Below are positions 1 through 56,115 of a stretch of 62,769 bases of DNA, piece by piece. The notes under the pieces were generated by a model. It was not told the DNA's origin. It saw only the letters and a list, made by a program, of their open reading frames with translations, and made no database searches. Numbering within the stretch: position 1 is the first letter of the stretch; each line of letters starts with the position of its first letter. Both the position numbers and the translations under genes were made by a program. Origin of the DNA: an uncultured Enterobacteriaceae bacterium (GTDB lineage Bacteria; Myxococcota_A; UBA9042); the NCBI GenBank assembly GCA_964356325.1, contig CAYHHL010000009.1, positions 1-62,769 on the forward strand, read 5' to 3'.

Positions 1-285
1 GTACGTGAAAGTGATGGTATTGGTCTTGCCGATGAACACGGTCTTGGTCGTGCGCAACTCGCTCTGGTGCTTGCTGACGTAGGCCATGCCGATTTCGCGT
101 TCCATGCGACCCAAGGCGACCCGCGCGGTGTGGTAGTAGTCCTGCATCTGCTTGGTGTCGCGAATCGCACCAAGAATCGAGGACATGGCCGTGCTGATGA
201 TGACGCCGAGCATGGCCAGCAGCGAAACTGCGATCATGAGCTCGACCATGGTAAAACCCGTGGATCCACGGCGTTCCTTCCTCAT
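1..285 (-). CDS. gspJ: T2SS minor pseudopilin GspJ-like (3' truncated by window edge)
   Basis: Manual translation from ATG 285: MRKERRGSTG|FTMVELMIAVSLLAMLGVII (class III signal), then RVALGRMEREIGMAY. The ATG overlaps the gspI stop (TGATG). Not in the ORF track because it runs off the window. The J assignment rests on gene order. Confidence 0.8.
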   Translation of the reverse strand, partial: MRKERRGSTGFTMVELMIAVSLLAMLGVIISTAMSSILGAIRDTKQMQDYYHTARVALGRMEREIGMAYVSKHQSELRTTKTVFIGKTNTITFTY

Positions 286-1145
286 CACCCACCGCCGGGA
301 GGCTGAGGCATCGCCCCCTGGATCGCGCCTTCCACCTTCTCCATCTGCTTCATCTGCTGGATAGCCTGGGCTTCCTCCTCGCTCACCGCGGTCGTGAACG
401 TCTCGATGTCCAGCGCGCGCTTCTCGCCCTCCTCGTCCTTCCAGGTCAGGTGCAGCACGACCTTGCGCGTCCGGTCCGAGGCCCGTTTCAGGATGCGCGG
501 CAGCAGCTCCGCCACCATGATGCCCATCGACATCTGCAGCACCGAGATGTTGATGTCGCACAAGTTCAGCAGGTTCACACCTTGGTCGCCCGACATCAGG
601 ATGACGCCGAGCAGCGACATCATATCGCCGCCCTTGCTCAAGGCGCCGAGGTCCAGCCCCGCGTCCGTCGCGCCCTTGGCCGCGCCCGCCAGATCCTGCA
701 TCTTCTTGGCCGGATCGCCCGCCGCGCCGTCGCCCGAGTTCAGCTTGTCCAGCGCGCCGGTCTTGGCCAGGCCGTCTTGCGCGTCGGCCAGCACCTTTTG
801 CGCCTGGGTCGACATGTCGCCGATCGCCGCGTCGTCCAGGTTCAGGCCGATCAGGTCGTACTTGCACTTGAATTGCCGGGCGTAGGCCTTGGGCAACTCG
901 CAGTCCTTGCCGGTCACGTCGTTGGTCGGGAAGCCGTCCTTGCGGTACTTTTCCTCGACGTCGAGCATGGTTCCACGCAACAGCAGCGCCGCGACGGTCG
1001 ACCGGTAGATGCGTTTGGAGTACAGCGCCGACGACGACGTGCCCGCCGTGATGATGGTCAGCGCGAACGCCAGCACCGCCATCGCGATGAGCACTTCGAG
1101 CAGGGTAAAACCCCTTTGTTGCCGTCGGTTGCGCGCCACCAGCAC
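285..1145 (-). CDS. gspI: T2SS minor pseudopilin GspI-like, unusually long (286 aa)
   Basis: RG|FTLLEVLIAMAVLAF prepilin motif; GTG start with AAGGAG upstream; lies between gspH and gspJ. Confidence 0.75.
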   Translation of the reverse strand: MLVARNRRQQRGFTLLEVLIAMAVLAFALTIITAGTSSSALYSKRIYRSTVAALLLRGTMLDVEEKYRKDGFPTNDVTGKDCELPKAYARQFKCKYDLIGLNLDDAAIGDMSTQAQKVLADAQDGLAKTGALDKLNSGDGAAGDPAKKMQDLAGAAKGATDAGLDLGALSKGGDMMSLLGVILMSGDQGVNLLNLCDINISVLQMSMGIMVAELLPRILKRASDRTRKVVLHLTWKDEEGEKRALDIETFTTAVSEEEAQAIQQMKQMEKVEGAIQGAMPQPPGGG

Positions 1146-1148
1146 GAA

Positions 1149-1799
1149 TCAGCTCTCCTTGCCGAGCTTGTCGGCGTCGACCTTGTCCTTGTGTACTTTC
1201 GCGGTTCCTTCCAGCGCCTTGACCTCCACCGTCATCACGTCGTCGTCGTCGGCCTGCACGTAGATGAACGCGTTCTCGGTGGTACCATTGGGGAAGAAGT
1301 ACACGTAAGCCATGCCCTTTTCCGTTGGGTTCTGCTGGTGCGAGGTCATCACGGTGCCGAACTTCAGGCCCTTGTCCAGCGTGTACTTCGCTAGCAGGCG
1401 CGATTCGATCGGCGTGAACCCGGAAGTCTGGCTCTTGTCCGGCTCGGCCTGATTCTTGCCTTTTTTCAAAGGCTTCTTCTTGACCGCGTCGTCTTCCTCC
1501 TCGCCCTCGCCCGGCAGCAGGAAGGTCTCGCACGGATCCGAACTGGTCTGCGATTCCGCCCAGTAGGACTGCGTGTCCAGATCGATGACCAACCGGTGGT
1601 TCTTGCCCGAAAGCACTGACAGGTTGTAGAGATAGCGCACGGCGACCGCGAGCTTGCCCGACTCCGACTGCACCGAGGCGCCGCGGATGTTGCTGACTCC
1701 CGCCGCCACCGCGACCGTGACGATGCCGATGACCGCCACGACGACGACCAGCTCGATCAGGGTAAACCCGCGAGAACTACGTGGTTCAGTGCTTGTCAT
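1149..1799 (-). CDS. gspH: T2SS minor pseudopilin GspH-like
   Basis: RG|FTLIELVVVVAVIG motif; C-terminal VYFFPNGTTE typical of GspH/FimT; start revised to ATG 1799 (1808 also possible). Confidence 0.8.
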   Translation of the reverse strand: MTSTEPRSSRGFTLIELVVVVAVIGIVTVAVAAGVSNIRGASVQSESGKLAVAVRYLYNLSVLSGKNHRLVIDLDTQSYWAESQTSSDPCETFLLPGEGEEEDDAVKKKPLKKGKNQAEPDKSQTSGFTPIESRLLAKYTLDKGLKFGTVMTSHQQNPTEKGMAYVYFFPNGTTENAFIYVQADDDDVMTVEVKALEGTAKVHKDKVDADKLGKES

Positions 1800-2271
1800 T
1801 GCCGCCATAGCAGATGTCGTCGTCGCCGCCGTTCTTCTTGTCCGGACCGTTGGAGCACAGCGTGAACGCATCGCCCTGGGCGCTGTAGTTCAGGTCCTGC
1901 TTCCAGGGATCCTTGAGGTTGGCCTGCTTGAGCCGGGCGCGCTTGCCTTCAGTCAGGCTGGCCAGCGAGTCCGGGAACTCGCCCTGGCGCGCCTCGACCG
2001 CCTCGATCACGCCGCCGACCGTGGCGATTTGCGCCTTGGCCGCGTCGATCTTGGCATCGCCGAGCATGCCGAACACGCCGACCGCGAGCGCGCTGCCGAG
2101 CACGCCGATGATCACGATCACCACCATGATTTCAATCAAAGTCATGCCCAGCGAAGCGTGGGGCATGACTTTGATTGTAGTTGCCGCGCGGCGCCGCGCG
2201 ACTCCGTGATGCGCCTGGGTACAGGCTTCGAGTTGCTGCCAAAGATGCAGTTTCAAGACGTTCAGGTTCAT
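1786..2271 (-). CDS. gspG: T2SS major pseudopilin GspG
   Basis: G|MTLIEIMVVIVIIGVL, LKDPW and SNGPD motifs of GspG; AAGGAGG 9 nt upstream of ATG 2271. Confidence 0.85.
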   Translation of the reverse strand: MNLNVLKLHLWQQLEACTQAHHGVARRRAATTIKVMPHASLGMTLIEIMVVIVIIGVLGSALAVGVFGMLGDAKIDAAKAQIATVGGVIEAVEARQGEFPDSLASLTEGKRARLKQANLKDPWKQDLNYSAQGDAFTLCSNGPDKKNGGDDDICYGGNDKH

Positions 2272-2301
2272 CGGTAGCGCCCTCCTTCGGCGCGGAAACT
2301 C

Positions 2302-3561
2302 TCAGCCTCTCATGGACTTCGCAAGTTGCATCATCGGCAGCAGGATCGCCGCCACCAGGAAGCCGACCATCACGCCCATGCCGACGATCATGATCGGCTC
2401 CAGCAGCGAGGTCAGCGCATTCACCCGCGTATCCACCTGATTCTCATAGCTTTCACTCACGTTGCGCAGCATGTTCTCGAGTTCGCCCGAGCGCTCGCCG
2501 ATCGCCACCATGTGCACGACCATCGGCGGAAACTGCTGGCTGCGCTTCAACGGCCCGGCGATGCTGTCACCTTCCCGAATCGCCGCGCGGGCTTCGGCGA
2601 TCACCTTGGCGAGCACGCGATTGGCCACCACGTTCTCGACGATTTCCATCGCGGTCAGCAGCGGCACGCCCGAGGACAACAGCGTCGACAGGGTCCGAGA
2701 AAAGCGTGAGATCGCGATCTTGCGGATGAGGTCGCCCAGCACTGGCACCCGCAGCAGGAACGCGTCCCACGAGTCGGCGCCCTTGTCGGTGGCCAGCCAG
2801 CGCCGAAAGCCTACGGTTGCGCCGACCGCGAGCAGGATGCCCAACCACCAGAAGCTCGAGAACAGGCTCGAGATGAAGATCAAGGCCTTGGTGATCAACG
2901 GCATCTCGGTGCCAAGATCGGTGAACATCCCGGTAATCGTTGGCACCACGAAGATCATCATCGCCGAGACGATGAGGGTGGCGATGCACAACATGATGAC
3001 CGGATAGGTCATGGCGCCGATGATCTTGTTGCGCAGGCGCACTTGCGATTCGGTGAAGTCGGCCAACCGCAGCAGCACGACGTCCATGTTGCCCGAGCTC
3101 TCACCCGCGCGGACCATGTTGAAGTACGTGACGCCAAAGACTTTCGGGTGCGCGCCCAACGCCCGCCAGAACGGCGCGCCCTCGTTCACGTCGGTGCGCA
3201 CCTGGGCAAGGACGCGCTTGAGCTTGGGGTTTTCGATCTGCTCGACCGTGGCGCCCAGCGCATCGACCAACGGCACGCCGGCCTTGAGCAAGGTCGCCAT
3301 CTGCCTGGTCATTTCCGAGACGTCGTTGGGCGAGATGCGCGTGAGCAGTTCTTCGAGGTCGAAGTCGCGCGAGCCGGCCTTCTGCACCGCACCGGCGCGG
3401 ATCTTGGCCTTGCCGCCCTTGACCGAAGTCTCGTGGTACTCGGTGAGGAAAACCTTGTCGCGGCGCAACGCGGACTTGAGCGAACGCACGCTCTCGACAT
3501 CAAGGACTCCCTTGATGGTGCGGCCACTTGAATCCTTGCCTATGTATTCAAAGACCGGCAT
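2302..3561 (-). CDS. gspF: T2SS inner-membrane platform protein GspF
   Basis: Two T2SSF domains (RQMATLLKAGVPL, GESSGNMDVVL, MTYP, GERSGELENML, LLEP). Confidence 0.95.
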   Translation of the reverse strand: MPVFEYIGKDSSGRTIKGVLDVESVRSLKSALRRDKVFLTEYHETSVKGGKAKIRAGAVQKAGSRDFDLEELLTRISPNDVSEMTRQMATLLKAGVPLVDALGATVEQIENPKLKRVLAQVRTDVNEGAPFWRALGAHPKVFGVTYFNMVRAGESSGNMDVVLLRLADFTESQVRLRNKIIGAMTYPVIMLCIATLIVSAMMIFVVPTITGMFTDLGTEMPLITKALIFISSLFSSFWWLGILLAVGATVGFRRWLATDKGADSWDAFLLRVPVLGDLIRKIAISRFSRTLSTLLSSGVPLLTAMEIVENVVANRVLAKVIAEARAAIREGDSIAGPLKRSQQFPPMVVHMVAIGERSGELENMLRNVSESYENQVDTRVNALTSLLEPIMIVGMGVMVGFLVAAILLPMMQLAKSMRG

Positions 3562-3658
3562 GGAGGTTCCTGATGAGCACTGCTTCTAATTCTGGGCGTT
3601 CAATTCCAGTCGCTCGGCGACCCATTGTGATGCGTGATTGCGATGGCACTGCAGAGAC

Positions 3659-5467
3659 CTAATCTTCTTGGTCTTGATTGGCGATGCGCATCACCTCTTC
3701 CACGGTTGTAGAGCCGCGCAGCACCTTGTAGGCGCCGTCGTTCAGCAGCGTTTGCATGCCGCTCGCCACCGCCGCGCGCTTGATCGTCCCCGCGTCGTTC
3801 TTGGCCACGATCAGCCGCTTGATTTCCTCATTGGGAATGAGCAGTTCGTGTAGACCCATCCGACCTGCGTAGCCCGTCATGCCGCACTGCGGACAGCCCT
3901 TCGCCGAGTAGATGGTCGCCGTCGCCAGCCGCGGATCGGTGCGCGCGATGCCCAGTTGCTCCAGTTCCAGATCGGTCGGGATGTGCGGCTGCCGGCAGTC
4001 CCGGCACAGCACGCGACACAGCCGTTGCGCCAGGATGCCGATGATCGACGACGACAAAAGGAATGGTTCCACGCCCATGTCGACCATACGGGTATAGGTC
4101 GAGGCCGCGTCGTTGGTGTGCACCGTCGAAAGCACCAGGTGGCCGGTCAGCGCCGCTTGCACCGCGATTTCAGCGGTTTCCAGGTCGCGGATTTCACCCA
4201 CCAGCACCACGTCCGGATCCTGACGCAGCGTAGCGCGCAGACCGCGGGCAAAGGTGAAGTCGATCTTGGGGTTGACCTGCATCTGGCCGATGCCTTCCAA
4301 CTGGTATTCGACCGGATCCTCGATGGTCAAGATGTTGATATCCGGGTTGTTGATCGACATCAGCGCCGAGTACAGCGTGGTCGTCTTGCCTGAACCGGTC
4401 GGCCCCGTGCACAGCAAGATGCCGTTCGGACGGTGCACCAGCTGGTTGATCGCCTCCACGACGTCTTCGCGCATGCCCAGCGTCTTCAAATCCAGCGTAG
4501 TCGAGCCCTTGTCGAGCAGACGCATCACGATCCGCTCGCCGTGCGCAGTCGGGATCGTGCTCAAGCGCAAGTCGATGTCGCGGCCCGCCACCTTGATGCG
4601 GATGCGGCCGTCTTGGGGCAGGCGCTTCTCGGCGATGTTCAGGTTGCCCATGATCTTGACGCGGCTGGTGATGGAAGCCTGGAACTTCTTGGAGGTCCGC
4701 ACCACCTCGCGCAGCACGCCGTCCTTGCGGAAGCGCACCAGCACGTACTTCTCCATCGGCTCGATGTGCACGTCCGAGACGCGTTCCTTGGCCGCCTGGT
4801 TCAGCACCGAATTCACCAGCCGGATGATCGGCGCTTCGTCGTCCTCGTCGAGGATGTCCTTGGCCGCGTCCTCCAGTTCCATCGCGATGTCGGCGACGCC
4901 GGAGTCGGTTTTCTCCATGTCGTCGAGCACTTGATCGGCACGCGCGCGGCGGTCGAAAGCGAAGTTGATGGCGTGGTTCAGCACGTCGGGAGTCACCAAC
5001 ACCGGTTCGACCTGGACGCCGCCGAACAGCACGCGCAAGTCGTCCAGCGCCGAGGTCGCCATCGGATTGCTGGTCGCCACCGTCAACACGCCGTTCAGCT
5101 TGTGAATCGGCAGAAGTTCCGACTCCTTGGCCCAGCCCATCGCCAACGGCGCCACCAGCGACACGTCGATGTTCGCCTCGTCGATACTGTCCTGTACGGT
5201 CATGCCCAGCTGCGAACCGAGCGCCTGCATCAGCTGAAGTCGTGTGATCGCCAGGTGTTGGATGAGCAGCTCGCCGATCAGCCCGCCGCGCTCGCCCTGC
5301 ACCTTCAGCGCGCTCTCGACCGCCTCGACCGTGCACCAGCCGCGTCCGACCAGGATCTCACCCAGCGCGCGCGGATCGATCTGTGGCGCCACGGCCGGAC
5401 GCTGTGTCGGCGCCGGACTCTGCGGCGGCAGTGGAATCGACATCATCGTGGTGGCTTCGAGCGTCAC
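3659..5467 (-). CDS. gspE: T2SS ATPase GspE with N-terminal MshEN-like domain
   Basis: Walker A GPTGSGKT, TIEDPVEY, Walker B LVGEIRD, His box STVHTND, CRDC...CPQC zinc module; GTG start overlaps the gspD stop. Confidence 0.95.
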   Translation of the reverse strand: MTLEATTMMSIPLPPQSPAPTQRPAVAPQIDPRALGEILVGRGWCTVEAVESALKVQGERGGLIGELLIQHLAITRLQLMQALGSQLGMTVQDSIDEANIDVSLVAPLAMGWAKESELLPIHKLNGVLTVATSNPMATSALDDLRVLFGGVQVEPVLVTPDVLNHAINFAFDRRARADQVLDDMEKTDSGVADIAMELEDAAKDILDEDDEAPIIRLVNSVLNQAAKERVSDVHIEPMEKYVLVRFRKDGVLREVVRTSKKFQASITSRVKIMGNLNIAEKRLPQDGRIRIKVAGRDIDLRLSTIPTAHGERIVMRLLDKGSTTLDLKTLGMREDVVEAINQLVHRPNGILLCTGPTGSGKTTTLYSALMSINNPDINILTIEDPVEYQLEGIGQMQVNPKIDFTFARGLRATLRQDPDVVLVGEIRDLETAEIAVQAALTGHLVLSTVHTNDAASTYTRMVDMGVEPFLLSSSIIGILAQRLCRVLCRDCRQPHIPTDLELEQLGIARTDPRLATATIYSAKGCPQCGMTGYAGRMGLHELLIPNEEIKRLIVAKNDAGTIKRAAVASGMQTLLNDGAYKVLRGSTTVEEVMRIANQDQED

Positions 5468-8400
5468 GGCTTGGGCTCCGGCGTCTTCGGGGCGCTGTCT
5501 TCTTTCGCGGGCGCGCTGTCCGGGCCAGCCTTCTTGCCCTTGGCCTTGGGCGCAGTCTTGCCCTTGACTGGCACGGTCTTCGCCTTGGGCGCAGAGGTTG
5601 CCGCGGGCGCAGCGGATTCCCTGCCTGGCTTCTCGCCGTCCAAGCGATCGCTCGCGTCGTCGTCCTTGGCCTTGCCAGAAGCCTTGCCACCGCCTGGCTT
5701 TTCCGCTTCCGGCAGGTCGATCACTTCGGGCACGGTGCCGTCGTCGCTCTCGTCGTCCAGCCTGCCCTCGGCGTCCGGCTTGCCTTGGTTCTTCCTGTCC
5801 TGCGCATCCTTTTGTTTTTGCGCCTTGAACGGGTCGAAGTTCAGGTCGTGGCGCTCCGGCGGTCCGACCAGATCCACGTCCGCGTTGTCGAAGTACGCTT
5901 TTTCCTGAAGTTTGCGCTCCTCGGACGCCTTCTCGACCGTCTGGAACACCGCCTCGAGGAATCCGCGCTTCTTGCGGTAGTCGACCTTGCCCTCGTACTC
6001 CTTCTGCTTGGTCGCCAGCTCTTCGGCAAACTCGCGAATCTGCTGCATCTTGTTCTCGTGCATCCGCTCCAGATCGCTCGGGTCCTTGATGATGTGCGGC
6101 ACGATGATGAGCAGCAGGTTCTTCTTCTCGAGCAGCTTGGTGGTCTTGCGGAAGAACATGCCCAGCAGGGGCAGGTCGCCCAGGATCGGAATCTTGGAAA
6201 CGCCCGTGGTCTCGCGATCGGTAATCAAACCACCGATGACCACGGGCTGCTGATCGCGTACCACCACGGTGTTGGTGATCTTGCGCTTCGAAGTCGTCGG
6301 CCCCAGATCCGGGCTGATGCCTTCGACCTCGTCGAGTTGCTGGTCGATCTTGAGCTTGATGAAGTCCGACTCGTTGATCTGCGGCGTGATCTTGAGCGTC
6401 AGGTCGACCTCGAGGTGCTGCACCGTGCCGCCGAGCGCGCCGCCGAGCAGGCCGCCCAGCCCGCCGAGACCGCCCAACGACGACGCCGCGCCGCCCAAGC
6501 CGGAGAGGCCGCCGAGACCGCCCAAGGCACTGCCGCCCATGCTCTGGGAACGATAGGGGATCTTGCGTCCGACTGTGATCTCCGCGTCCTCGTTGTTGAG
6601 CGTGAGGATGTGCGGGGTGGACAACACGTTGACGTCGGAATTCTCCTGGATCGCCTGAATCAGGAAGCCGAACGCGGGGATGGACAGGGTGGCGCCGGCC
6701 GGGACAGCGCCTGTGTTGCCGGCGTCGACCTGCAGCAGGGGCCCCTGCAAGCCCGCCGCGAAGCCGCCCGCGTTGAGTTGCTGCAAGCTGACGCCGCCCA
6801 TGCCCAGACCGCCCAAGCCGATCAGGAAGGGCACATCCTTGTACTGGCCGATGTCGAACTTGACGCCCGTCGAGCCGGCGAGTTGGGTCTTGCGGTTCTT
6901 GGAGGTCGAGATCTCCATGATCACGGCTTCGACGTAGACTTGCTTGCGCCGCCGATCGAGCTCGGCGATGACCTTCTGCAAAGACAGGTAATCCTTGAGC
7001 GAAGACTCGATCACCAAGGCGTTGGTGGCCTTGTGCGCGGTGATCTTCACGTCGCCTTCGAACAGCGTGGCCGTCCCGCCGCCCTTGGCCCCACCGGCCT
7101 TGGCGCCGCCGGTCTTGCCCCTCGCCGCGCCGGCCTTGGCCCCGCCGCCGCCGCCCGCGAGCGAGGACAAGGTGCTGGCCACGTCCTCGGCGTCGGCGTT
7201 CTCCAAATGGTGGATGTGGATGGCGCCCTCGCCCGGAATCGGCACGTCGAGCTTGCGGATCAGCGCGTCGATCTTGAGGTAGTTGCTCCTCGTCGCGATG
7301 AGGATGAGCTGGTTGGAGCGGTCGTCAGCAATCGCCTTGGAAAGCGTGACCTTGTTGCCCGCCGGACCGCCGGCGGCTCCGGGAGGCGAACCGGGCGTGG
7401 TCGCTCCACCCTTGCCGCCCGCGCCTTCGAACACCGCGGTGATCTTCTCGACCAGTTCCGAGGCGTCCATGTGCTGCACCGGGCGGATCCAGATCTTCTC
7501 GGCGCCCAGCGGCAAGTCGACGTCGTTGAGCAACTTCATGATGCTGTGGATGTTGGTGCCGGTGTCGGTGACGATGAGCGAGTTGTTCGGCGGATACACG
7601 AAGATATCGCCGGCCTTGCTCTTGAACTTGGTGACCAGGGGCTCGACCTCCTTGGCGTCGAGGTTCTTCAACCGGATGATGCGCGTGACCATGTTGTCAT
7701 CGTTGGGCACCGCGCTCGTGGGCCCGACGACCGTGGCGCCCGAGGTGCGCGCGTCCGCCGTGTCGACGATGTGGTAGAATGCGCCCTTCTTGGTGACGGA
7801 CATGCCGTTGACCATCAGGCTCGACAGGAAGGCGCGGTAGGCCTCGTACACGCTGACCGGCTGCGGCGAAATGATGGTGATCTTGCCGCCGCGCTTCTGG
7901 GTCGCGAGGATGAAGTTGCGCGTGGTCCAACACGAAACGAGCTTCATCACCGCTTCGATCGGCGCGTCCTGGAAGTCCAGTGTCACCTTGGCGTTGGCCG
8001 GCAGCTTCTTGCACTTGATATCGCTGATGTTGTTCTTGATCGCGACGACGTCATCGCCCATCTTCTTGAGGTCGTCGTCACCGATCGCGCCCTTGGCCGC
8101 GCCTGCCTGATCGTCCTTGCCAGCGCGACCGCCACCGGCAGGCGTGGGCACCACCGGATCGCTCGGGCCCCCGTCCACGCCCAGCTTCTTGGACGTTTGC
8201 GCGGGATCGTAGTCCGGATCGAGGGACTGCTTGCCGCCGCCGCGCTTGAACACGCCGCTGCCGGTCGCCTTCAAGTCCTTGGTTTTGCCCTTCTTGTTCA
8301 GCGTGCCGGCGCCGGTCTTGACGGGAATGGTCTTGTCGCCCGGCGGGGCAGCGGCTTGCTGGGCATGCGCCATGCCTGGCAGCAGAAGCGCGCAGATCAG

Positions 8401-8499
8401 CACCAAAACGCCAGTCTTGTCGCAGGCACGCCGCAGGGACGGCGGCGGCTGGCTTGGCTTGCCCGGCTTGTCAGCCAGCGTGGGTCGGAACGGACGCAA
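5464..8499 (-). CDS. gspD: T2SS secretin GspD
   Basis: N0 (VTLDFQDAPI), repeated N domains, KQVYVEAVIMEI, NVLSTPHILTLNNEDAEITVG, LKITPQIN, KIPILGDLPLLGMFFR. Likely start is TTG 8499 after GGAGAG (ORF track starts at 8553). Confidence 0.95.
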   Translation of the reverse strand: MRPFRPTLADKPGKPSQPPPSLRRACDKTGVLVLICALLLPGMAHAQQAAAPPGDKTIPVKTGAGTLNKKGKTKDLKATGSGVFKRGGGKQSLDPDYDPAQTSKKLGVDGGPSDPVVPTPAGGGRAGKDDQAGAAKGAIGDDDLKKMGDDVVAIKNNISDIKCKKLPANAKVTLDFQDAPIEAVMKLVSCWTTRNFILATQKRGGKITIISPQPVSVYEAYRAFLSSLMVNGMSVTKKGAFYHIVDTADARTSGATVVGPTSAVPNDDNMVTRIIRLKNLDAKEVEPLVTKFKSKAGDIFVYPPNNSLIVTDTGTNIHSIMKLLNDVDLPLGAEKIWIRPVQHMDASELVEKITAVFEGAGGKGGATTPGSPPGAAGGPAGNKVTLSKAIADDRSNQLILIATRSNYLKIDALIRKLDVPIPGEGAIHIHHLENADAEDVASTLSSLAGGGGGAKAGAARGKTGGAKAGGAKGGGTATLFEGDVKITAHKATNALVIESSLKDYLSLQKVIAELDRRRKQVYVEAVIMEISTSKNRKTQLAGSTGVKFDIGQYKDVPFLIGLGGLGMGGVSLQQLNAGGFAAGLQGPLLQVDAGNTGAVPAGATLSIPAFGFLIQAIQENSDVNVLSTPHILTLNNEDAEITVGRKIPYRSQSMGGSALGGLGGLSGLGGAASSLGGLGGLGGLLGGALGGTVQHLEVDLTLKITPQINESDFIKLKIDQQLDEVEGISPDLGPTTSKRKITNTVVVRDQQPVVIGGLITDRETTGVSKIPILGDLPLLGMFFRKTTKLLEKKNLLLIIVPHIIKDPSDLERMHENKMQQIREFAEELATKQKEYEGKVDYRKKRGFLEAVFQTVEKASEERKLQEKAYFDNADVDLVGPPERHDLNFDPFKAQKQKDAQDRKNQGKPDAEGRLDDESDDGTVPEVIDLPEAEKPGGGKASGKAKDDDASDRLDGEKPGRESAAPAATSAPKAKTVPVKGKTAPKAKGKKAGPDSAPAKEDSAPKTPEPKP

Positions 8500-8572
8500 A
8501 GGGCACTCTCCGATGCGGACGTTGGTCCGCTGGTGGTGGCACGAAAAGCCCATCCCACCCAGATGGTTCGAT

Positions 8573-48908: not shown

Positions 48909-50963
48909 ATGAAGAAGGAAAATGCCATCATCGCGATCGTCGCGGTCGGTGTGCTGGCGTTCGTGGGCGGACGCATGGCGACCTCTCCATCGGCGCCGGC
49001 TCCGGCAGCCGTGACCCCCGAGACCGTGAAGGCGGAAGCGCCGGTCGCAGCCCCGGTCGGGTCCAAGACCCCGGCTGAAGGTCCGGCCAACGCCAAGGTC
49101 ACGATCATCGAGATCAGCGACTACCAGTGTCCGTTCTGCAGCCGCGCGTACACGACGCTGGAAGAGGTCAAGAAGCAGTACCCGAAGGACGTGCGCATCC
49201 TCTTCATCAACCAGCCGCTGCCGTTTCACCCGCACGCCAAGCCGGCGGCTGTCGCCTCTCTGGCCGCCCACAAGCAGGGCAAGTTCTGGGAAATGTACGG
49301 CAAGCTGTTCTCCAACCAGCAGCAGCTCGGCGACGAGAACTACCAGAAGTGGGCCAAGGAAATCGGCCTGGACATGGCCAAGTTCAACGCCGACCTCAAG
49401 GACGCCGAAGTCGCCAAGCAGGTCGAGCGCGACATGGCGGTGGCCAAGGGTCTGGGCGTCAACGGAACGCCGGGCTTCTTCATCAACGGCGTGAATGTCT
49501 CGGGCGCGCAGCCGATCGAGAACTTCAAGAAGATCATCGACGAGCAGATCACCAAGGCCAATGACGAGTTGGCCAAGGGCACCAAGGCCGAGGACCTGAA
49601 CGAGAAGCTGACCAAGGCCAACAACCCGGCGCTCGGTGACAACCTGATCAAGTGGGTGTTCAAGGGCGAGAACCCGCCGGCCGATGCCGCGCCGCCCGCC
49701 GCTGCCGGTGGCGACAAGAAGGCCGATCGCCCGGATCCGCTGGCGGACAAGACCGTGTGGAAGGTGCCGCTTTCGGGTCTCGAAGCCGTCAAGGGCAAGG
49801 CCGACGCCGCCGTGACGCTGATTTGGTACACGGACTTCCAGTGCCCCTTCTGCTCGCGCGTCCAGCCGACCATCGAGAAGATCGAGACCGAGTACAAGGA
49901 CAAGGTTCGTATCGTTTTCAAGCATTTGCCGCTCGACTTCCACAAGAACGCGATGGGTGCCGCCGAAGCCGCCGCTTGCGCCAACGAGCAGGGCAAGTTC
50001 TGGGAAATGGAGAAGTACCTGTACGAGAACCAGCAGAAGCTCGAAGCCGCCCAGCTCGGCGAGCATGCCAAGGCTGTTGGTCTGGACACAGGCAAGTGGC
50101 AGAAGTGCATGGACGCCCACAAGTTCAAGGACGCGATCGCCAAGGACATGGCCACGGCCGAGAAGGTCCAGACGACCGGAACGCCGGCATTCTTCGTCAA
50201 CGGCCGCAAGCTCTCGGGCGCGCGTCCGTTCGAAGACTTCAAGAAGATGATCGACGAGGAGTTGGAGAAGGCCGAGAAGATGATCAAGGACGGCACCCCG
50301 GCCAAGGACGTCTACGCGAAGATCATCGCGGACGGCAAGGAGTTCACGCCCCCGGCTGCTTTGGATCCGAAGGTCCGTGACTTCGACTACGCCGGTTCGC
50401 CGCACAACGGTCCCCGGGACGCCAAGGTCAAGATCGTCGAATTCAAGGATTTCCAGTGCCCCTTCTGCGCGCGCATCAACCCGGCGCTCAAGCAGCTCGA
50501 GCAGAAGATGCACGGCAAGGTCGCGATTGTGTACAAGCACTTCCCGCTGTCGAGCCAGTGCAACCCGGGCATGTCGCGCGACATGCACCCGGCGGCGTGC
50601 CTCGCCACCTACTGGTCGATGGCGGCCGAGGAGCAGGGCAAGTTCTGGGAGTTCGAGGAGATCGTTTACAACAACATGTCGACGATGATGCCGACCGAAG
50701 GCGAATTGCCGGCCCGTCTGGCTGCGCAGACCGAGAACCTCAAGAAGTACGCCAAGGAAGCTGGCGTCGATGTCGACAAGGCCGCAGCCTACGTGGGCGC
50801 CAAGAAGTACGAAGCGCGCCTGACCAAGGACATCAAGGAAGCCGGCGCGGCCGAAGTTCGCGGCACGCCTTCGCTGTTCATCAACGGTCGCCAGTACAAC
50901 GCGCCGATGACCCCCGAGAAGATGGGCGAAGTCGTGCAGAAGGTGCTGGACGGCAAGATCTAG
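48909..50963 (+). CDS. Membrane-anchored protein with three tandem DsbA/thioredoxin-4 domains
   Basis: N-terminal TM/signal; three CPFC active sites (DYQCPFC, DFQCPFC, DFQCPFC), each followed by a cis-Pro motif (GTPGFF, GTPAFF, GTPSLF). Confidence 0.92.
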   Translation: MKKENAIIAIVAVGVLAFVGGRMATSPSAPAPAAVTPETVKAEAPVAAPVGSKTPAEGPANAKVTIIEISDYQCPFCSRAYTTLEEVKKQYPKDVRILFINQPLPFHPHAKPAAVASLAAHKQGKFWEMYGKLFSNQQQLGDENYQKWAKEIGLDMAKFNADLKDAEVAKQVERDMAVAKGLGVNGTPGFFINGVNVSGAQPIENFKKIIDEQITKANDELAKGTKAEDLNEKLTKANNPALGDNLIKWVFKGENPPADAAPPAAAGGDKKADRPDPLADKTVWKVPLSGLEAVKGKADAAVTLIWYTDFQCPFCSRVQPTIEKIETEYKDKVRIVFKHLPLDFHKNAMGAAEAAACANEQGKFWEMEKYLYENQQKLEAAQLGEHAKAVGLDTGKWQKCMDAHKFKDAIAKDMATAEKVQTTGTPAFFVNGRKLSGARPFEDFKKMIDEELEKAEKMIKDGTPAKDVYAKIIADGKEFTPPAALDPKVRDFDYAGSPHNGPRDAKVKIVEFKDFQCPFCARINPALKQLEQKMHGKVAIVYKHFPLSSQCNPGMSRDMHPAACLATYWSMAAEEQGKFWEFEEIVYNNMSTMMPTEGELPARLAAQTENLKKYAKEAGVDVDKAAAYVGAKKYEARLTKDIKEAGAAEVRGTPSLFINGRQYNAPMTPEKMGEVVQKVLDGKI

Positions 50964-51087: not shown

Positions 51088-51158
51088 TTCGAGTGCAAGC
51101 ACTCGAATTGGCTCAGGATGACATCGCCTGCTTCGAGTGCTTAGCACTCGAGGCAGGC
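51088..51158. repeat. Two related palindromes overlapping the end of the matrixin-like gene
   Basis: TTCGAGTGC-AA-GCACTCGAA (51088-51107) and GCCTGCTTCGAGTGC-TTA-GCACTCGAGGCAGGC (51126-51158). Confidence 0.75.
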
Positions 51159-53189
51159 TCGGCGGCGCAGGGCCAGCAGGCTCACGACGGCCAGCAAGGC
51201 CAGCAGGGGCAGCACGCCGCGCGAGGTTCGGCTGGCTTGGCAGGTCGAGTCGTCCGCCAGTTGTACGCCCTTGAACTTGCTCGCGAGGACCACGTCCGGC
51301 AGCGCGAGATCGTTGCGCGCCGAGGGGTTGGCTAGCTTCTTTGCAGCAGGACTCACCGCGAAGCGCAGCGCGGCGTCGGGCGCGCACACGCCGTGCTCGC
51401 TGGCCAAGCCGCCCGTTTCGAAAGGCGCGCACGTCAGCCCCGAAGCGCACGGTTTGCCTTTGGGGTCGCACACCGTGCGGCAGTTCGCGGGCTCGCCGGT
51501 CGCCGCGGCGCAAAATAGGTCCGAGCGGCATGGCTGGCTGGCGCTGCACGAGGCTCCCGGCGCGGCGCCGCCCTGGTCCGCCCGGCACACTCCGCCTGAC
51601 TTGACCCACACGCAGCTGTGCGCCTTGGTGCAGTCGCTGCCGTCACCGTACGGGTCGCAGGTGGGCGAACAGGCGCCGATACCAAGCGCGGGGCCGACGT
51701 CGCAGGCCAGGTTGTTGCCGCACGAGCCGGACAACAGGCACGGACCGCCGACGATGGCCGGGCCTGAGGGGATGCACCACTGGAGGCCGGACACGGTGCT
51801 GCAGCCGGTGCCGGCGGGGCATTCCGCTGCGACGACGCAGGGCTGGCTGCACACGCGCGGGTAGCGGCCGCCAGGCGTCGGCACGCATTCGCCGGTCGCG
51901 CAGTCGCCGTTGCCTTCGCAGGGGAAGCCGATCGGCAGCGGCCCGCCCTTGGCCGAACAAAACTGGTCCGTGCGGCAGGACGAGCTCTTGGGGCAGCTGT
52001 GGTTGCCGACGCAATCCAGGCTGCACGAGCCGCCTTGGACCGAAGAACCGACGCAAGTCGCCGGGTTCAGAGCGCCGGACGAACACTCCGAAGCGATGAG
52101 GCAGGGCTCGCCGGGTTCACGCGTTCCAGAGTAGTGGCACAGCTGGCCGGTGCTCGAGGCCACGCAAAAGCCACCGTGGCATCCGGAGCTGCAGGTCTTG
52201 GTGCACCAGCCGAACTTGGACTCGGTGTTGCAGTAGTAGCCGCCGGGGTCGCCGGCGCTCGGCGCGGGGCAGGCGTTGTCGCTGAAGCACAGGCCGCCAG
52301 GGGCCGCCTGCCCGGACTCGGGGTGGCAATGGCCGTCATTGGGCAGGCAGGCCTTGCCGTCGCCGGTCGCGCCGCAACTGGTGGCCAACGGGCAGTCGCC
52401 GTGATCCTGGCACGAGAGCAGGCAGTGGCGGGAACCATCTGACCAGGCGAAGCATTGCCCTTGGGCACAGTCGGCGTCGGTGCTGCACGCGTCGCACTGG
52501 CTGCCGGGCGCTGGACTCTTGGCGGTGGGCCACAGGAAATGGACGCCGCGGCGATCGTCCTCGGCTAGCACGCGCTGGCCGGCGTCGATGCGGTAGAAGT
52601 ACATGGCCGAGCCACTGTCCCTGCTGTGGCCGAGACCGATCGCATGGCCGAGCTGGTGCGTCAGGGCGCCTTGCAGATCGACGAGTTGGCCGGTCTGGAA
52701 CGGCGCGTTGGGATTCAGGGACCACACGATGGGCGGCGCCGCGTTCAGCGCGATCTCGATCCGGCTGACCTTGCCCGAGGCGTCGTGCAGCCGATCGGCG
52801 CGGCCCGTAACGTCGCCGCTGCTGCCGACGTACTTGGAATCGAAGGTGATATAGATATCGTAAAGTGGCGGCTTGGTGACTTGACCGCCGAAATTCAGCA
52901 CGACCCGCGAGTCCGGCACCGCGTTCCAGGTCGCGATCGCCGCCAGGATCGCCGTCTCGACTTGCGCCGAGGTGAGCTTGCCGACGGCCTGCGGACGCCA
53001 ATACACCGACAGCGGCACCTGCGCCGGCCGGATGATGTGGCCCTGTTCGGTGCGATCGACGTCGAACGCAAGCGCCTTACGCGGCAAGAGCAAAGCGCTC
53101 GCCAGGAGCAGCAGCGCCAGCGTCGGTCGCGCGAGCCACTGGTATCTGGGGAACAGCCGGAGAGGATGCGGTGTAGATAGCAAGGCCAT
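51141..53189 (-). CDS. Matrixin (M10)-like secreted protein with HQxxH motif, Cys-rich repeats and MYXO-CTERM-like tail
   Basis: Signal peptide (ALA|F); AAIATWNAVP; HQLGHAIGLGH plus Met-turn SAMY; about 400 aa of Cys repeats; tail TCQASRTSRGVLPLLALLAVVSLLALRRR. Confidence 0.85.
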   Translation of the reverse strand: MALLSTPHPLRLFPRYQWLARPTLALLLLASALLLPRKALAFDVDRTEQGHIIRPAQVPLSVYWRPQAVGKLTSAQVETAILAAIATWNAVPDSRVVLNFGGQVTKPPLYDIYITFDSKYVGSSGDVTGRADRLHDASGKVSRIEIALNAAPPIVWSLNPNAPFQTGQLVDLQGALTHQLGHAIGLGHSRDSGSAMYFYRIDAGQRVLAEDDRRGVHFLWPTAKSPAPGSQCDACSTDADCAQGQCFAWSDGSRHCLLSCQDHGDCPLATSCGATGDGKACLPNDGHCHPESGQAAPGGLCFSDNACPAPSAGDPGGYYCNTESKFGWCTKTCSSGCHGGFCVASSTGQLCHYSGTREPGEPCLIASECSSGALNPATCVGSSVQGGSCSLDCVGNHSCPKSSSCRTDQFCSAKGGPLPIGFPCEGNGDCATGECVPTPGGRYPRVCSQPCVVAAECPAGTGCSTVSGLQWCIPSGPAIVGGPCLLSGSCGNNLACDVGPALGIGACSPTCDPYGDGSDCTKAHSCVWVKSGGVCRADQGGAAPGASCSASQPCRSDLFCAAATGEPANCRTVCDPKGKPCASGLTCAPFETGGLASEHGVCAPDAALRFAVSPAAKKLANPSARNDLALPDVVLASKFKGVQLADDSTCQASRTSRGVLPLLALLAVVSLLALRRRACLEC

Positions 53190-53343
53190 TTCCGTCCATC
53201 TCGCGCGCAGAACCGGCGCGCGTTTTCGCTGGCAAACCATCGCCCTGACTGTAGGCGTCCGCGGCTGTGGAGTCCACCGCTAGCACAGTGGCTCGCTCGG
53301 CCAAAGGCAGGGGTGCAGAACAATAGGCGAAACATTGAATTGC

Positions 53344-53371: not shown

Positions 53372-53438
53372 CCGCGCCCGTTCGGCCCCCTGCGTCCAAA
53401 GCGCGAGTCTGGGCCAAGACCCTGCAGGAGAGGTTTCC

Positions 53439-53726
53439 ATGAGTACCAGCGCACTTCCGCAGATCGCGAACGATGACTCACGCCCCCGCCGCCTGACCGA
53501 TATCTTCCGGTGCAGCCACCGCGGCCGCAACCTGCTGCTCGCCACGTGCCTGGACGACTACATGAACGCCAACGCCTTGCGCGTGAAGTCCATGGTTTGT
53601 TTCGAATGCACGCAGGGGGGCTGCAATCGCGAAGCCTTCGCCGCGGACGCCGATACCGAAGGCCTGCTCGATTCCGAGATCTGGGCGCGGCTGATGGCCG
53701 ACATGAAAGATCCCGACATGCCGTGA
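53439..53726 (+). CDS. Small cytoplasmic protein (95 aa) with a candidate Cys4 metal site
   Basis: GGAGAGG RBS; FRCSHR..TCLDDY..CFECTQGGC; no signal peptide; GC3-rich codon usage. Confidence 0.7.
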   Translation: MSTSALPQIANDDSRPRRLTDIFRCSHRGRNLLLATCLDDYMNANALRVKSMVCFECTQGGCNREAFAADADTEGLLDSEIWARLMADMKDPDMP

Positions 53727-54036
53727 CACGCCTACGCGTGCCGGTGTGCGATTAAAGCCATCTGAAGCCGCACGGTTGCGGGCGAGAAGTCGCGGAGTCG
53801 CTTGTCGCGCAGGCCTCGTCGTGCTAACTTGCCCGCGCCTCGACGTCTGCCAGGTCGCCTCTGGGCACCGAAACGACGCGAGGTTTGAACGACCTACAAG
53901 GTTCGAAGGACAGCGAGGTTTGCACGACCTTGCTGGGGCGGCAGGTGAGACCTGTCCTCGACGCTGATCCAACCCTGGAATATGCCGGCGATACGGGAGC
54001 CCTCGGGCCCGATTCGAGAACCGGCGCGGAGACGAC

Positions 54037-56115
54037 ATGGCGACGGCCAACAGTCAGAGCTTCCCGGTCCAATTCGGGCGCTACTACCTGACGCAGAAGG
54101 TCGCCATGGGCGGCATGGCGGAGATCTTCCGCGGCAAGAGCATCGGCGCGGAAGGCTTCGAGAAGATCGTCGCGATCAAGCGGATCCTGCCGCACTTCTC
54201 GGAGGACGAAGGCTTCGTCACGATGTTCAAGGACGAGGCCCGCGTCGCCGCCCAGCTGACGCATGCCAACGTCGTGCAAGTGTTCGACTTCGATGAAGTG
54301 GACGAACTCTTCTACATCGCGATGGAGTACGTCGAGGGCCACGACCTGAAGCGCGTGCTCGACGTCGGCGCGCGCGATGGCAAGCCGCTGTCGATCGCGC
54401 AAGCCGTTCACATCATGATGGAAGCCTCGCAGGGCCTGCACTACGCCCATACCCGCGTGGTCGACGGCAATCCGCTCAACATCATCCACCGTGACGTATC
54501 TCCGCACAACATCATGGTTTCCTTCAATGGCGAAGTGAAGATCATGGACTTCGGCATCGCCAAGGCGGCCAGCCGATCGACCAAGACGCGCGTGGGCACC
54601 GTGAAGGGCAAGTGCGCGTACATGAGCCCAGAACAGGCGCGTGGCAAGCCGCTGGACGGCCGGTCCGACCTGTTCGCGCTCGGCGTGACGCTGTGGGAGA
54701 TGCTGACCGGCAAGCGCTTGTTCGTGGGCGAGTCGGACTTCGAGACGCTCAACAACGTGCTGAAGGCCGAGGTGCCGCCGCTGAGCGAACTGAACCCGGA
54801 AGTGCCGAAGGAACTCGAAGCGATCGTGCTGAGGTCGCTGGCGCGCGATCGCGATGAACGCCAGGCCGATGTCGGCGTGTTCGTGAGCGAGTTGCGGCGC
54901 TGGTTCTACGGCAACGTGCCCGATCCGGAAGCGGCGAACATCAAGACCTATATGAACGACCTGTTCGCGAGCGACATCGCCAAGTTGCGCAATGACGTCG
55001 CGGCCGAGCAGCAGATGATGGAGGGCGTGCGCAAGGGCGGCACGGCTTCGCAGCGTCGGGCGGCGGGCGGTGGCACTGGATCGTCGCCCTCGGCGCGGGT
55101 GCCGGACGACGAAAAGACCATGGCGTTGGATACTTCTGGCGGCGCCCAGTTGGATGCCGATAGGACCATGGCGCTGCCCGACGCGATGGCCCAGCTCGGT
55201 CTGGCCAACGCGGGCGGACGCACGATGTCCGACATGTCCGCGGTGATCCCCAAGAAATCCAAGGCCGGCATGTTCGTCGGCGTCGGCGTCGTCCTGGCCG
55301 CGGTGGTTGCCATCGGCGGCTACGTTGCGATGACCGGGGACAAGACTGCGGCCAAGCCGCCTTCCGCGCTGGCCGCGGTCGCGCCACCCACCGCCAAGAC
55401 CAAGCTGCACATCAAGGCACCGGGAGCGAACCAGATCTCGGTGGACGACGAACTGCTGTGCACCGAAGCGGAATGCACGACCACGGCGGAAAAGGGCAAG
55501 ACCGTCAAAATCATCGCCAAGAACGGCGAGCGCATGAAGCTCGTGCGCCAGGAACTGACCGAAGACGAAATGACGATCACGCTCGAACTGCCCAAGAGCG
55601 AAGAGAAGAAACCGGAAGCGTTGATCGCGGTGCAGGCCTCGCCGGTCGTGATCGTGCAGGTCATTCCGATCACGGCGGAAGTGACGGTCAACGGCCAGAA
55701 GATCGAACTGACGGGCGGCAACGGCAAGGTCCCGAACGCCAAGCTGGGCGACACGATCAAGGTGGAGGCCAAGGCTGAGGGGCACAAGTCCGAGACCAAG
55801 GACTTCCTGGTCAAGAACGCGCAGTTGGAGACGTTCGAGATTCGCTTGGAGAAGGAACAGAAGGAGAAGCCGGCAGGCGGTTCAGCGACTCAGGCGCCGA
55901 GTGGTCCGGGCAAGCTGGTGGTCAACGCCAAGCCGTGGGCCAAGGTTTCGGAGAAGGGCAGGGACCTCGGCCTGACGCCGGTGAAGGTCGATCTGGCCGC
56001 CGGCAAGCACACCTTGACGCTGACCAAGGGCTCCGTGACCAAGACCATCTCGGTGACGATCAAGCCTGGTCAGACCGCGACGCAAAACGTCGACATGACC
56101 GAGGCAGCGCCGTAA
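54037..56115 (+). CDS. Membrane Ser/Thr protein kinase with extracytoplasmic PEGA-like domains
   Basis: GGMAEIF, VAIKRI, HRDVSPHN, DFGIAK, YMSPEQ, DLFALG; TM helix at GMFVGVGVVLAAVVAIGGYV; C-terminal GKLVVNAKPWAKV..GLTPVKV..GKHTLTL. Confidence 0.93.
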   Translation: MATANSQSFPVQFGRYYLTQKVAMGGMAEIFRGKSIGAEGFEKIVAIKRILPHFSEDEGFVTMFKDEARVAAQLTHANVVQVFDFDEVDELFYIAMEYVEGHDLKRVLDVGARDGKPLSIAQAVHIMMEASQGLHYAHTRVVDGNPLNIIHRDVSPHNIMVSFNGEVKIMDFGIAKAASRSTKTRVGTVKGKCAYMSPEQARGKPLDGRSDLFALGVTLWEMLTGKRLFVGESDFETLNNVLKAEVPPLSELNPEVPKELEAIVLRSLARDRDERQADVGVFVSELRRWFYGNVPDPEAANIKTYMNDLFASDIAKLRNDVAAEQQMMEGVRKGGTASQRRAAGGGTGSSPSARVPDDEKTMALDTSGGAQLDADRTMALPDAMAQLGLANAGGRTMSDMSAVIPKKSKAGMFVGVGVVLAAVVAIGGYVAMTGDKTAAKPPSALAAVAPPTAKTKLHIKAPGANQISVDDELLCTEAECTTTAEKGKTVKIIAKNGERMKLVRQELTEDEMTITLELPKSEEKKPEALIAVQASPVVIVQVIPITAEVTVNGQKIELTGGNGKVPNAKLGDTIKVEAKAEGHKSETKDFLVKNAQLETFEIRLEKEQKEKPAGGSATQAPSGPGKLVVNAKPWAKVSEKGRDLGLTPVKVDLAAGKHTLTLTKGSVTKTISVTIKPGQTATQNVDMTEAAP

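Follow-up and report, generated by a model that had tools for sequence, protein, structure and literature searches.

A predicted surface protein whose matrixin-like head lacks the catalytic glutamate: a putative pseudoprotease conserved in a family of lake myxobacteria

We analysed a stretch of 62,769 nucleotides (the window; contig CAYHHL010000009.1 of assembly GCA_964356325.1, GTDB lineage Bacteria; Myxococcota_A; UBA9042), in which a gene on the minus strand at 51141..53240 codes for a predicted surface protein with a matrixin-like (peptidase family M10) head. In the zinc-binding motif of this head the catalytic Glu is replaced by Gln. Two phylogenetic trees show a single loss of this Glu, on the branch from which the window's whole taxonomic family descends. 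The protein very probably performs no conventional proteolysis and is kept by selection. We estimate at roughly 70% the probability that it is a surface-tethered pseudoprotease acting by binding rather than by cleaving.

The open reading frame (ORF) runs without interruption through 51141-53240 (stop codon included) and gives 699 amino acids (aa) from the first ATG; the probable start is Met18 (window position 53189), which gives 682 aa in agreement with the public gene call P0002. The zinc-binding motif HQLGHAIGLGH lies at 52626..52658 (minus strand), with zinc ligands His195 (CAC, 52656-52658), His199 (52644-52646) and His205 (52626-52628), and is followed by the Met-turn Met213 (ATG, 52602..52604) in SAMYFY. 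Where HExxH has its general-base Glu, the window protein has Gln196; its codon, CAG at 52653..52655, is a single base away from GAG. Compared with an active metzincin (HExxHxxGxxH), the window protein has, therefore, its zinc ligands and Met-turn but not the general base. A first-pass annotation of this DNA had read the motif, the CAG codon, the three His and the Met-turn in the same way, and had described the ORF as otherwise intact with Cys repeats and a MYXO-CTERM-like tail. The minus-strand reading agrees on each of these counts; the protein contains 54 Cys and ends in a tail of the MYXO-CTERM type.

Pfam, profile and fold matches indicate that HQLGHAIGLGH is not a chance occurrence of HxxxH. 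The head (aa 59-245; 52506..53066, minus strand) was matched by PF00413 Peptidase_M10 over aa 88-236 (43.2 bits, E 5e-11, gathering cutoff 24; 47.1 bits in a six-frame search). A profile of the family's heads searched against the PDB hit chains of the matrix metalloproteinases (MMPs) MMP-13, MMP-16, stromelysin-1 and matrilysin and of karilysin, with E ~1e-10 to 1e-8, and the position of Gln196 aligned exactly with the Glu of HELGH, as in MMP-13 and MMP-16. The AlphaFold2 (AF2) model of aa 58-262, built from 21 sequences, had a mean per-residue confidence (pLDDT) of 87.4 and a predicted TM-score (pTM) of 0.88. Its best Foldseek match was karilysin 2xs4 (E 6e-10, TM 0.76); the top matches, karilysin and MMP-1/3/7/8/13/14, had E from 6e-10 to 2.5e-08 and probability 1.00.

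The head appears to differ from a canonical MMP in two respects. The Sec-type signal peptide, read from the sequence and alignments as Met18 to Ala58 (53067..53189, minus strand; putative cleavage at ...LLPRKALA / FDVDR), adjoins the head directly, so that there is no prodomain, and no PRCGxPD-type propeptide is present in the sequence; the AxA / F-D boundary at the end of the signal peptide is kept across orthologs. Opposite the MMP-16 segments GFHGD, LAHAY and DTHFD, which we take to be the structural-zinc ligand segments, the family profile has no His, and the second (structural) zinc site of MMPs is probably absent. Because of these two features the head is best described, on its sequence, as a minimal matrixin-like domain and not as a canonical MMP. 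The zinc site itself probably still binds metal in the window protein.

To follow the catalytic position across relatives, we turned to 40 related genomes; the search yielded a single full-length homologue for almost every one, and the motif was inspected in each. None of the 34 distinct orthologs belonging to the window's taxonomic family had the Glu (Gln in 23, His in six, Leu in four and Met in one), while HExxHxxGxxH was kept in 11 out of 11 proteins of the same architecture from nine other families of the class; three short paralogs keep it as well. The maximum-likelihood tree of the full alignment contained exactly one Glu/non-Glu change, on a branch with SH-aLRT support of 100. A second tree, made from stalk columns only so that the head could not bias the split, gave the same division with support 100/100, and it was seen in 100% of bootstrap trees. 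Both trees thus place a single loss of Glu at the base of the family.

The same border was seen on a global scale. We searched 1.84 billion cluster representatives with a profile and inspected the motif of the 150 best matches. Not one of the 25 best-scoring representatives with a head had Glu (Gln in 17, Leu in three, His in two, Met in one and Ala in one), and the next 126 in rank all had it (HExxH). Among the 23 Gln orthologs the codon was CAG in 14 and CAA in nine, and no lineage has reverted to Glu although one base would suffice; this mixture of codons and the lack of reversion point to a long persistence of the Gln state. The first-pass annotation had proposed a pseudoprotease, a call to be given up if orthologs all had Glu. 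None of the 34 orthologs of the family does, nor does any of the 25 closest clusters, and since one ancient loss defines the whole family, the call comes out stronger than it was made.

The gene is present in 36 of 37 species of the family, in all 24 high-quality genomes and in all 14 genera, as a single copy with no internal stops; the sole species without it is represented by a metagenome-assembled genome (MAG) of 58% completeness. One genome with 6% contamination (G009) carries two orthologs. The protein encoded at G009:C648:22640-24631 is identical to that at G011:C575:230-2221, from another genus, and this second copy is probably bin contamination rather than a duplication. The named records of the family are lake or freshwater MAGs throughout (Baikal, Mendota, Erken, Zurich and others). 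Two MAG records that carry the locus, CAYURO010000011.1 and CAMDBH010000061.1, are titled ‘uncultured Enterobacteriaceae bacterium’ and ‘Klebsiella pneumoniae’, respectively, and look mislabelled.

We compared column conservation between the non-Glu clade and the HExxH clade and saw that the catalytic residue is not the only loss. The motif D-A-A-A (aa 143-146), 82-91% conserved among HExxH orthologs, is gone from the non-Glu clade; its position corresponds to the substrate-aligning edge strand of matrixins. Trp72 is lost too. Cys110 and Cys234 (alignment positions at 52911-52913 and 52539-52541, minus strand) are each 91% conserved in the active clade and both present in one paralog (L038), while both are absent in other paralogs (L032) and in the whole non-Glu clade, where Gly/Asp and Arg/His are found instead. 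As the two Cys either co-occur or are both absent, we infer a disulfide between them. The Cys pair, and with it probably this head disulfide, was lost together with the edge-strand motif at the very node where the catalytic Glu disappeared. Residues were gained in the non-Glu clade as well: a mature N-terminus F-D-V-x-R (Asp60 85%, Arg63 100%) and Arg234 (85%).

The zinc site has fared less uniformly. Across the family His195, His199 and His205 are conserved at 97%, 94% and 85%, respectively. The third His is replaced by Phe in three orthologs (L016, L017 and L020) and by Leu in L057, the first or second His is altered in L010 (RQLAY) and L018 (HMVGR..V), and the Met-turn Met has become Leu in at least six members. 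The first-pass annotation had held that a Glu-to-Gln change keeps zinc and substrate binding; the window protein does retain the three His and the Met-turn, but family-wide the statement is weakened. The most decayed member of the non-Glu series is the cluster representative P0023 (718 aa, 52 Cys), whose motif reads QQLARALGLEA with no zinc ligand left and whose Cys pattern is complete. His occupies the Glu position in six orthologs (HHxxH), and in four of these (L008, L011, L012 and L047) the Met-turn Met is also replaced by Leu, which may be a linked change of the zinc-site environment.

Despite this erosion the gene is not decaying. Pairwise ratios of nonsynonymous to synonymous substitution rates (dN/dS, Nei-Gojobori) were 0.05-0.31 for the head in ten within-clade pairs and 0.07-0.42 for the stalk in nine pairs, dS being saturated in the tenth; one active-clade pair gave 0.05. 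Such values are those of purifying selection on both head and stalk. The first-pass annotation had named as a check whether Gln is conserved in orthologs under purifying selection; the non-Glu state was seen in all 34 orthologs. The ratio of head to stalk distances was 1.15 in the non-Glu clade versus 0.97 in the active clade, suggesting a partial relaxation but no release from selection. A conserved homologue of an enzyme family that has lost an essential catalytic residue and stays under purifying selection is a pseudopeptidase, and on these alignments the window protein is to be counted as one.

The head is followed by a disulfide-rich stalk (aa 246-620; 51381..52505, minus strand) delimited by Cys spacing, invariant Cys columns and the AF2 model. 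It contains 50 Cys in about six repeats, each of ~60 aa with 8 Cys, and nearly all of these Cys are invariant within the family. The AF2 model of the stalk (pLDDT 78.9) consists of strings of beta-hairpins. We found no significant fold match for it in the PDB (best E 0.24), and for this reason we leave the fold unnamed; identities with EGF, Dickkopf or colipase-like folds were rejected, as the structural matches had probability <=0.16. NCBIfam gave no match anywhere in the stalk. A poorly conserved linker (aa 621-664; 51249..51380, minus strand), with lower pLDDT, connects the stalk to the sorting tail.

The tail (aa 665-699; 51144..51248, minus strand) closes the protein with ...DDSTC(667)QASRTSRG-VLPLLALLAVVSLLAL-RRRACLEC. 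MYXO-CTERM sequences have three defining features (PMC11980579), namely a Cys motif that is invariant, a helix that spans the membrane and a C-terminus rich in Arg, and all three are seen here: Cys667 (51240-51242, minus strand) with QASRTSRG, the hydrophobic VLPLLALLAVVSLLAL, and RRR, with an AF2 helix covering about the last 23 residues. In 30 ortholog tails Gly-Cys is at least 90% conserved, and the model TIGR03901 matches 22 of the 30 (best E 6.3e-08). For TraA of Myxococcus xanthus, MYXO-CTERM directs myxosortase cleavage and surface display dependent on a secretion system of type II (T2SS) (PMC11980579). The genome has a myxosortase (NF040914 Mrt_core, 116.8 bits versus a cutoff of 100; none of 14 control genomes was above the cutoff). 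A T2SS set is found in the window at 285-8553 (minus strand): the secretin GspD (1029 aa, including an N0 domain), GspE, which carries an MshEN domain, GspF, and a pair of ORFs that resemble pseudopilins. These T2SS genes are ~43 kb away from the pseudo-matrixin gene on the same contig.

Taken together, these data suggest the following course of events. The protein would be exported by Sec and then fold oxidatively; the MYXO-CTERM tail would, by analogy with TraA, give lipid-anchored display at the surface; the rigid disulfide stalk would hold the head off the membrane; and the distal head, presumably descended from a surface protease, would bind rather than cut. The MMP-1 mutant E219Q is catalytically inactive and was used to study single molecules on collagen fibrils (10.1101/804559). 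HExxH motifs with substitutions are widespread; the Glu has mostly become Gln, Leu or Ala, and it has been proposed that such proteins bind ligands or act as decoys (PMC3650047, PMC11266112). In view of the missing edge-strand motif and of the zinc ligands eroded in relatives, we consider binding by a remodelled surface likelier in our case than a classical substrate trap.

Several considerations weigh against a surface pseudoprotease that acts by binding. The eroded edge strand speaks against simple substrate-trap binding; it is gone clade-wide, and several lineages lack zinc ligands or the Met-turn Met. Metzincins with an E-to-Q mutation can reportedly keep trace activity; in matrilysin E198Q the activity is said to be down by orders of magnitude but not to zero. 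In the HHxxH variants, His might in principle serve as a base. The case for orthology with the HExxH clade is built on architecture, tree position and single-copy status, as the gene neighbourhood is not shared. The surface location is proposed by analogy, and the tail of the window protein falls below the TIGR03901 cutoff (17.8 bits versus 20, E 0.0032); the authors of this model state that low-scoring true members require review (10.1101/2023.06.07.544157). The first-pass suggestion of a surface-displayed T2SS substrate is, thus, favoured by analogy, through the type of the tail, the myxosortase, the T2SS genes and the known TraA pathway, and qualified by the score of the tail. The roles of receptor, adhesin or decoy put forward in the first-pass annotation are hypothetical.

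A different explanation sees in the head no more than a vestigial cap: selection would act on a function of the Cys-rich stalk or of the whole protein (e.g. as a structural surface-layer or spacer element), with the fold kept for folding, T2SS recognition or stability and not to bind a specific ligand. The stalk is indeed more conserved than the head within the family (mean identity 47% versus 39%), and relative to the stalk the head has diverged more than in the active clade; still, dN/dS is no higher for the head than for the stalk. Several lineages dispense with zinc ligands and the edge-strand motif is lost, but the active-site helix motif DLQxxLTHQLGHxxGLxHS is the best conserved stretch, and new head residues (Arg63, Asp60, Arg234) were fixed after the loss of Glu. 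No deletion or truncation of the head was seen in the 34 orthologs or in the 20 full-length (>=600 aa) of the 25 non-Glu clusters, a count that does not take in the shorter entries P0004, P0025 and P0026. We consider this explanation unlikely.

One could also speculate about the ligand. At the origin of this family of planktonic lake Myxococcota the only full-length surface matrixin would have been converted into a recognition or adhesion receptor with a TraA-like head on a stalk, whose dead site or F-D-V-x-R terminus binds a ligand on prey, kin or particles, possibly with signalling via the small Cys protein and the kinase with a PEGA domain encoded nearby. This specific scenario is doubtful.

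Less likely still is that the protein remains an enzyme, either a protease with an unconventional general base (a zinc-bound hydroxide aided by Gln, His or another residue) or a zinc hydrolase acting on a non-peptide substrate. The window protein keeps three His and the Met-turn, its head is under purifying selection, and E-to-Q metzincin mutants are said to have residual activity. Gln or His occupies the site in 29 of 34 orthologs, but Leu, Met or Ala is found there elsewhere in the clade. At least seven otherwise intact members have lost zinc ligands, and the motif that would align a substrate is gone. Neither the helix nor the Met-turn region shows a newly conserved acidic or His residue; what the clade has gained lies at the N-terminus and at positions 234 and 255.

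Another role, a special case of the binding model, is that of a decoy or regulator of active paralogs, in which the dead head binds protease inhibitors, substrates or partners of MYXO-CTERM matrixins. Decoys and regulators are the commonest roles proposed for substituted zincins such as ADAM pseudopeptidases (PMC3650047, PMC11266112), and candidates to be regulated exist, as the genome has at least seven other M10-like genes, all HExxH and several with MYXO-CTERM-type tails. The active paralogs are, however, short (~320-360 aa), distant (E 1e-6) and not adjoining the gene, no inhibitor gene was seen nearby, and the eroded cleft speaks against mimicry of an active site; we regard the decoy role as highly improbable. 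A recent loss-of-function allele or a one-base sequencing or assembly error, to which CAG being one base from GAG and the fragmented MAG (464 contigs) might point, is refuted by the ortholog data: the orthologs of all 14 genera, assembled independently from many lakes, are without Glu, and Gln occurs in 22 other orthologs with both CAG and CAA codons, leaving this explanation practically no probability.

Among characterized proteins, karilysin (Tannerella forsythia, 2xs4) and the MMPs (MEROPS M10A) resemble the window head in fold, in the HxxxHxxGxxH-S motif, in the Met-turn and in the C-terminal helix with a DD motif. The window head differs by Gln for Glu, by having no Cys-switch or Asp-switch propeptide, and by its fusion to a Cys-rich stalk with a MYXO-CTERM tail. 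The closest relatives are the HExxH orthologs of other families (L021-L031; e.g. P0027-P0048), which form a sister clade in the trees. They have ~650-800 aa, a signal peptide, an M10 head, a stalk with ~50-70 Cys and a tail of the form GC...hydrophobic...RRR; they keep Glu, D-A-A-A, Trp72 and Cys110/Cys234, unlike the window protein, and are found in another gene neighbourhood. We found no experimental characterization of these orthologs.

TraA is an analogue in architecture and sorting and not a homologue; it has a signal peptide, a distal head, a Cys-rich stalk of tandem repeats and a MYXO-CTERM tail (PMC3820747, PMC11980579). The TraA head is PA14-like while the window head is a matrixin, and Pfam gave M10-type matches only, with neither a PA14-like head nor TIGR02232-type Cys repeats in the window protein. 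The family NF041905 (MXAN_2677/MXAN_2678 myxosortase-dependent metalloprotease; a model of 283 positions) likewise combines an M10-like domain with a MYXO-CTERM tail, and its members are annotated as proteases. It was the only NCBIfam model with a match anywhere in the protein at E<=1; membership was rejected, as the match was a weak one to the zinc-motif region (aa 186-256) with 32.4 bits versus a cutoff of 250.

Eukaryotic pseudo-metallopeptidases (ADAM proteins with HQxxH or LQxxL, ACE3, CLCA) are similar in being conserved zincin folds with a substituted Glu, for which roles in binding or scaffolding or as decoys have been proposed (PMC3650047, PMC11266112). They belong to the families M12, M2 and CLCA and mostly arise by paralogy. 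The window pseudoenzyme, unlike these, replaces the only full-length copy, with no active twin of the same architecture.

Pseudo-metallopeptidases in general and HQxxH in particular are already documented, and a specialist is likely to see here a tidy case rather than a surprise. What sets the family of the window protein apart is its clean evolutionary record: the dead copy has not been duplicated but has replaced the lineage's only protein of such architecture. A 2024 review of pseudopeptidases covers M12, M14 and other families with no M10 case, and in the literature searched we found no described bacterial or conserved pseudo-matrixin (M10). Pseudoenzymes are well documented in eukaryotes and seldom traced in bacteria. 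The family members show a stepwise erosion after the loss of Glu (edge strand and Cys pair first, Met-turn next, zinc ligands last) in a gene that stays core and constrained, and they form a natural series in which one can ask why a dead protease fold is retained on a bacterial surface. In addition, the analysis draws attention to a family-specific surface protein in lake myxobacteria that are abundant and uncultured. Automatic annotation as ‘matrixin family metalloprotease’ overstates the capacity of the non-Glu proteins.

The neighbourhood of the gene is partly conserved within the family. The convergent downstream neighbour (48909..50963, plus strand) codes for a triple DsbA/thioredoxin-fold protein with three Thioredoxin_4/DSBA stretches in Pfam, and 13 out of 22 searched loci of the family show the two genes side by side. 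On the other side are a divergent ORF of 96 aa (53436-53726, plus strand) with a Cys pattern C..C...CxxC..C, identified by synteny, and a divergent Ser/Thr kinase with a PEGA domain (54037-56115, plus strand; Pfam). The synteny of the latter two (53436..56115) is kept in 19 of the 22 loci. The small ORF, which has no Pfam match and no signal peptide, is 64-80% identical in most of these 19 loci (55% in L058) and is invariably located just upstream of the PEGA kinase, divergent from the pseudo-matrixin gene. The DsbA-like, small-ORF and kinase neighbours were absent within ~6 kb of the HExxH orthologs at nine outgroup loci, and synteny was accordingly rejected as proof of orthology with the HExxH clade. 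Upstream of the pseudo-matrixin gene we saw by eye no TGGCAC-N5-TTGCA sigma-54 site; the only sigma-70-like match there is on the plus strand, facing the small ORF.

Five of the other M10-like genes with HExxH are on contigs C45, C51, C37, C108 and C58 of the window's genome, G000 (loci L071, L072, L074, L075 and L078). Several of them are short (~320-360 aa) and one is long (733 aa); at least four have a hydrophobic, Arg-rich tail, preceded by a Cys in three. These genes probably code for the organism's active surface matrixins. With such HExxH genes present, surface proteolysis by matrixins has, in general, not been given up.

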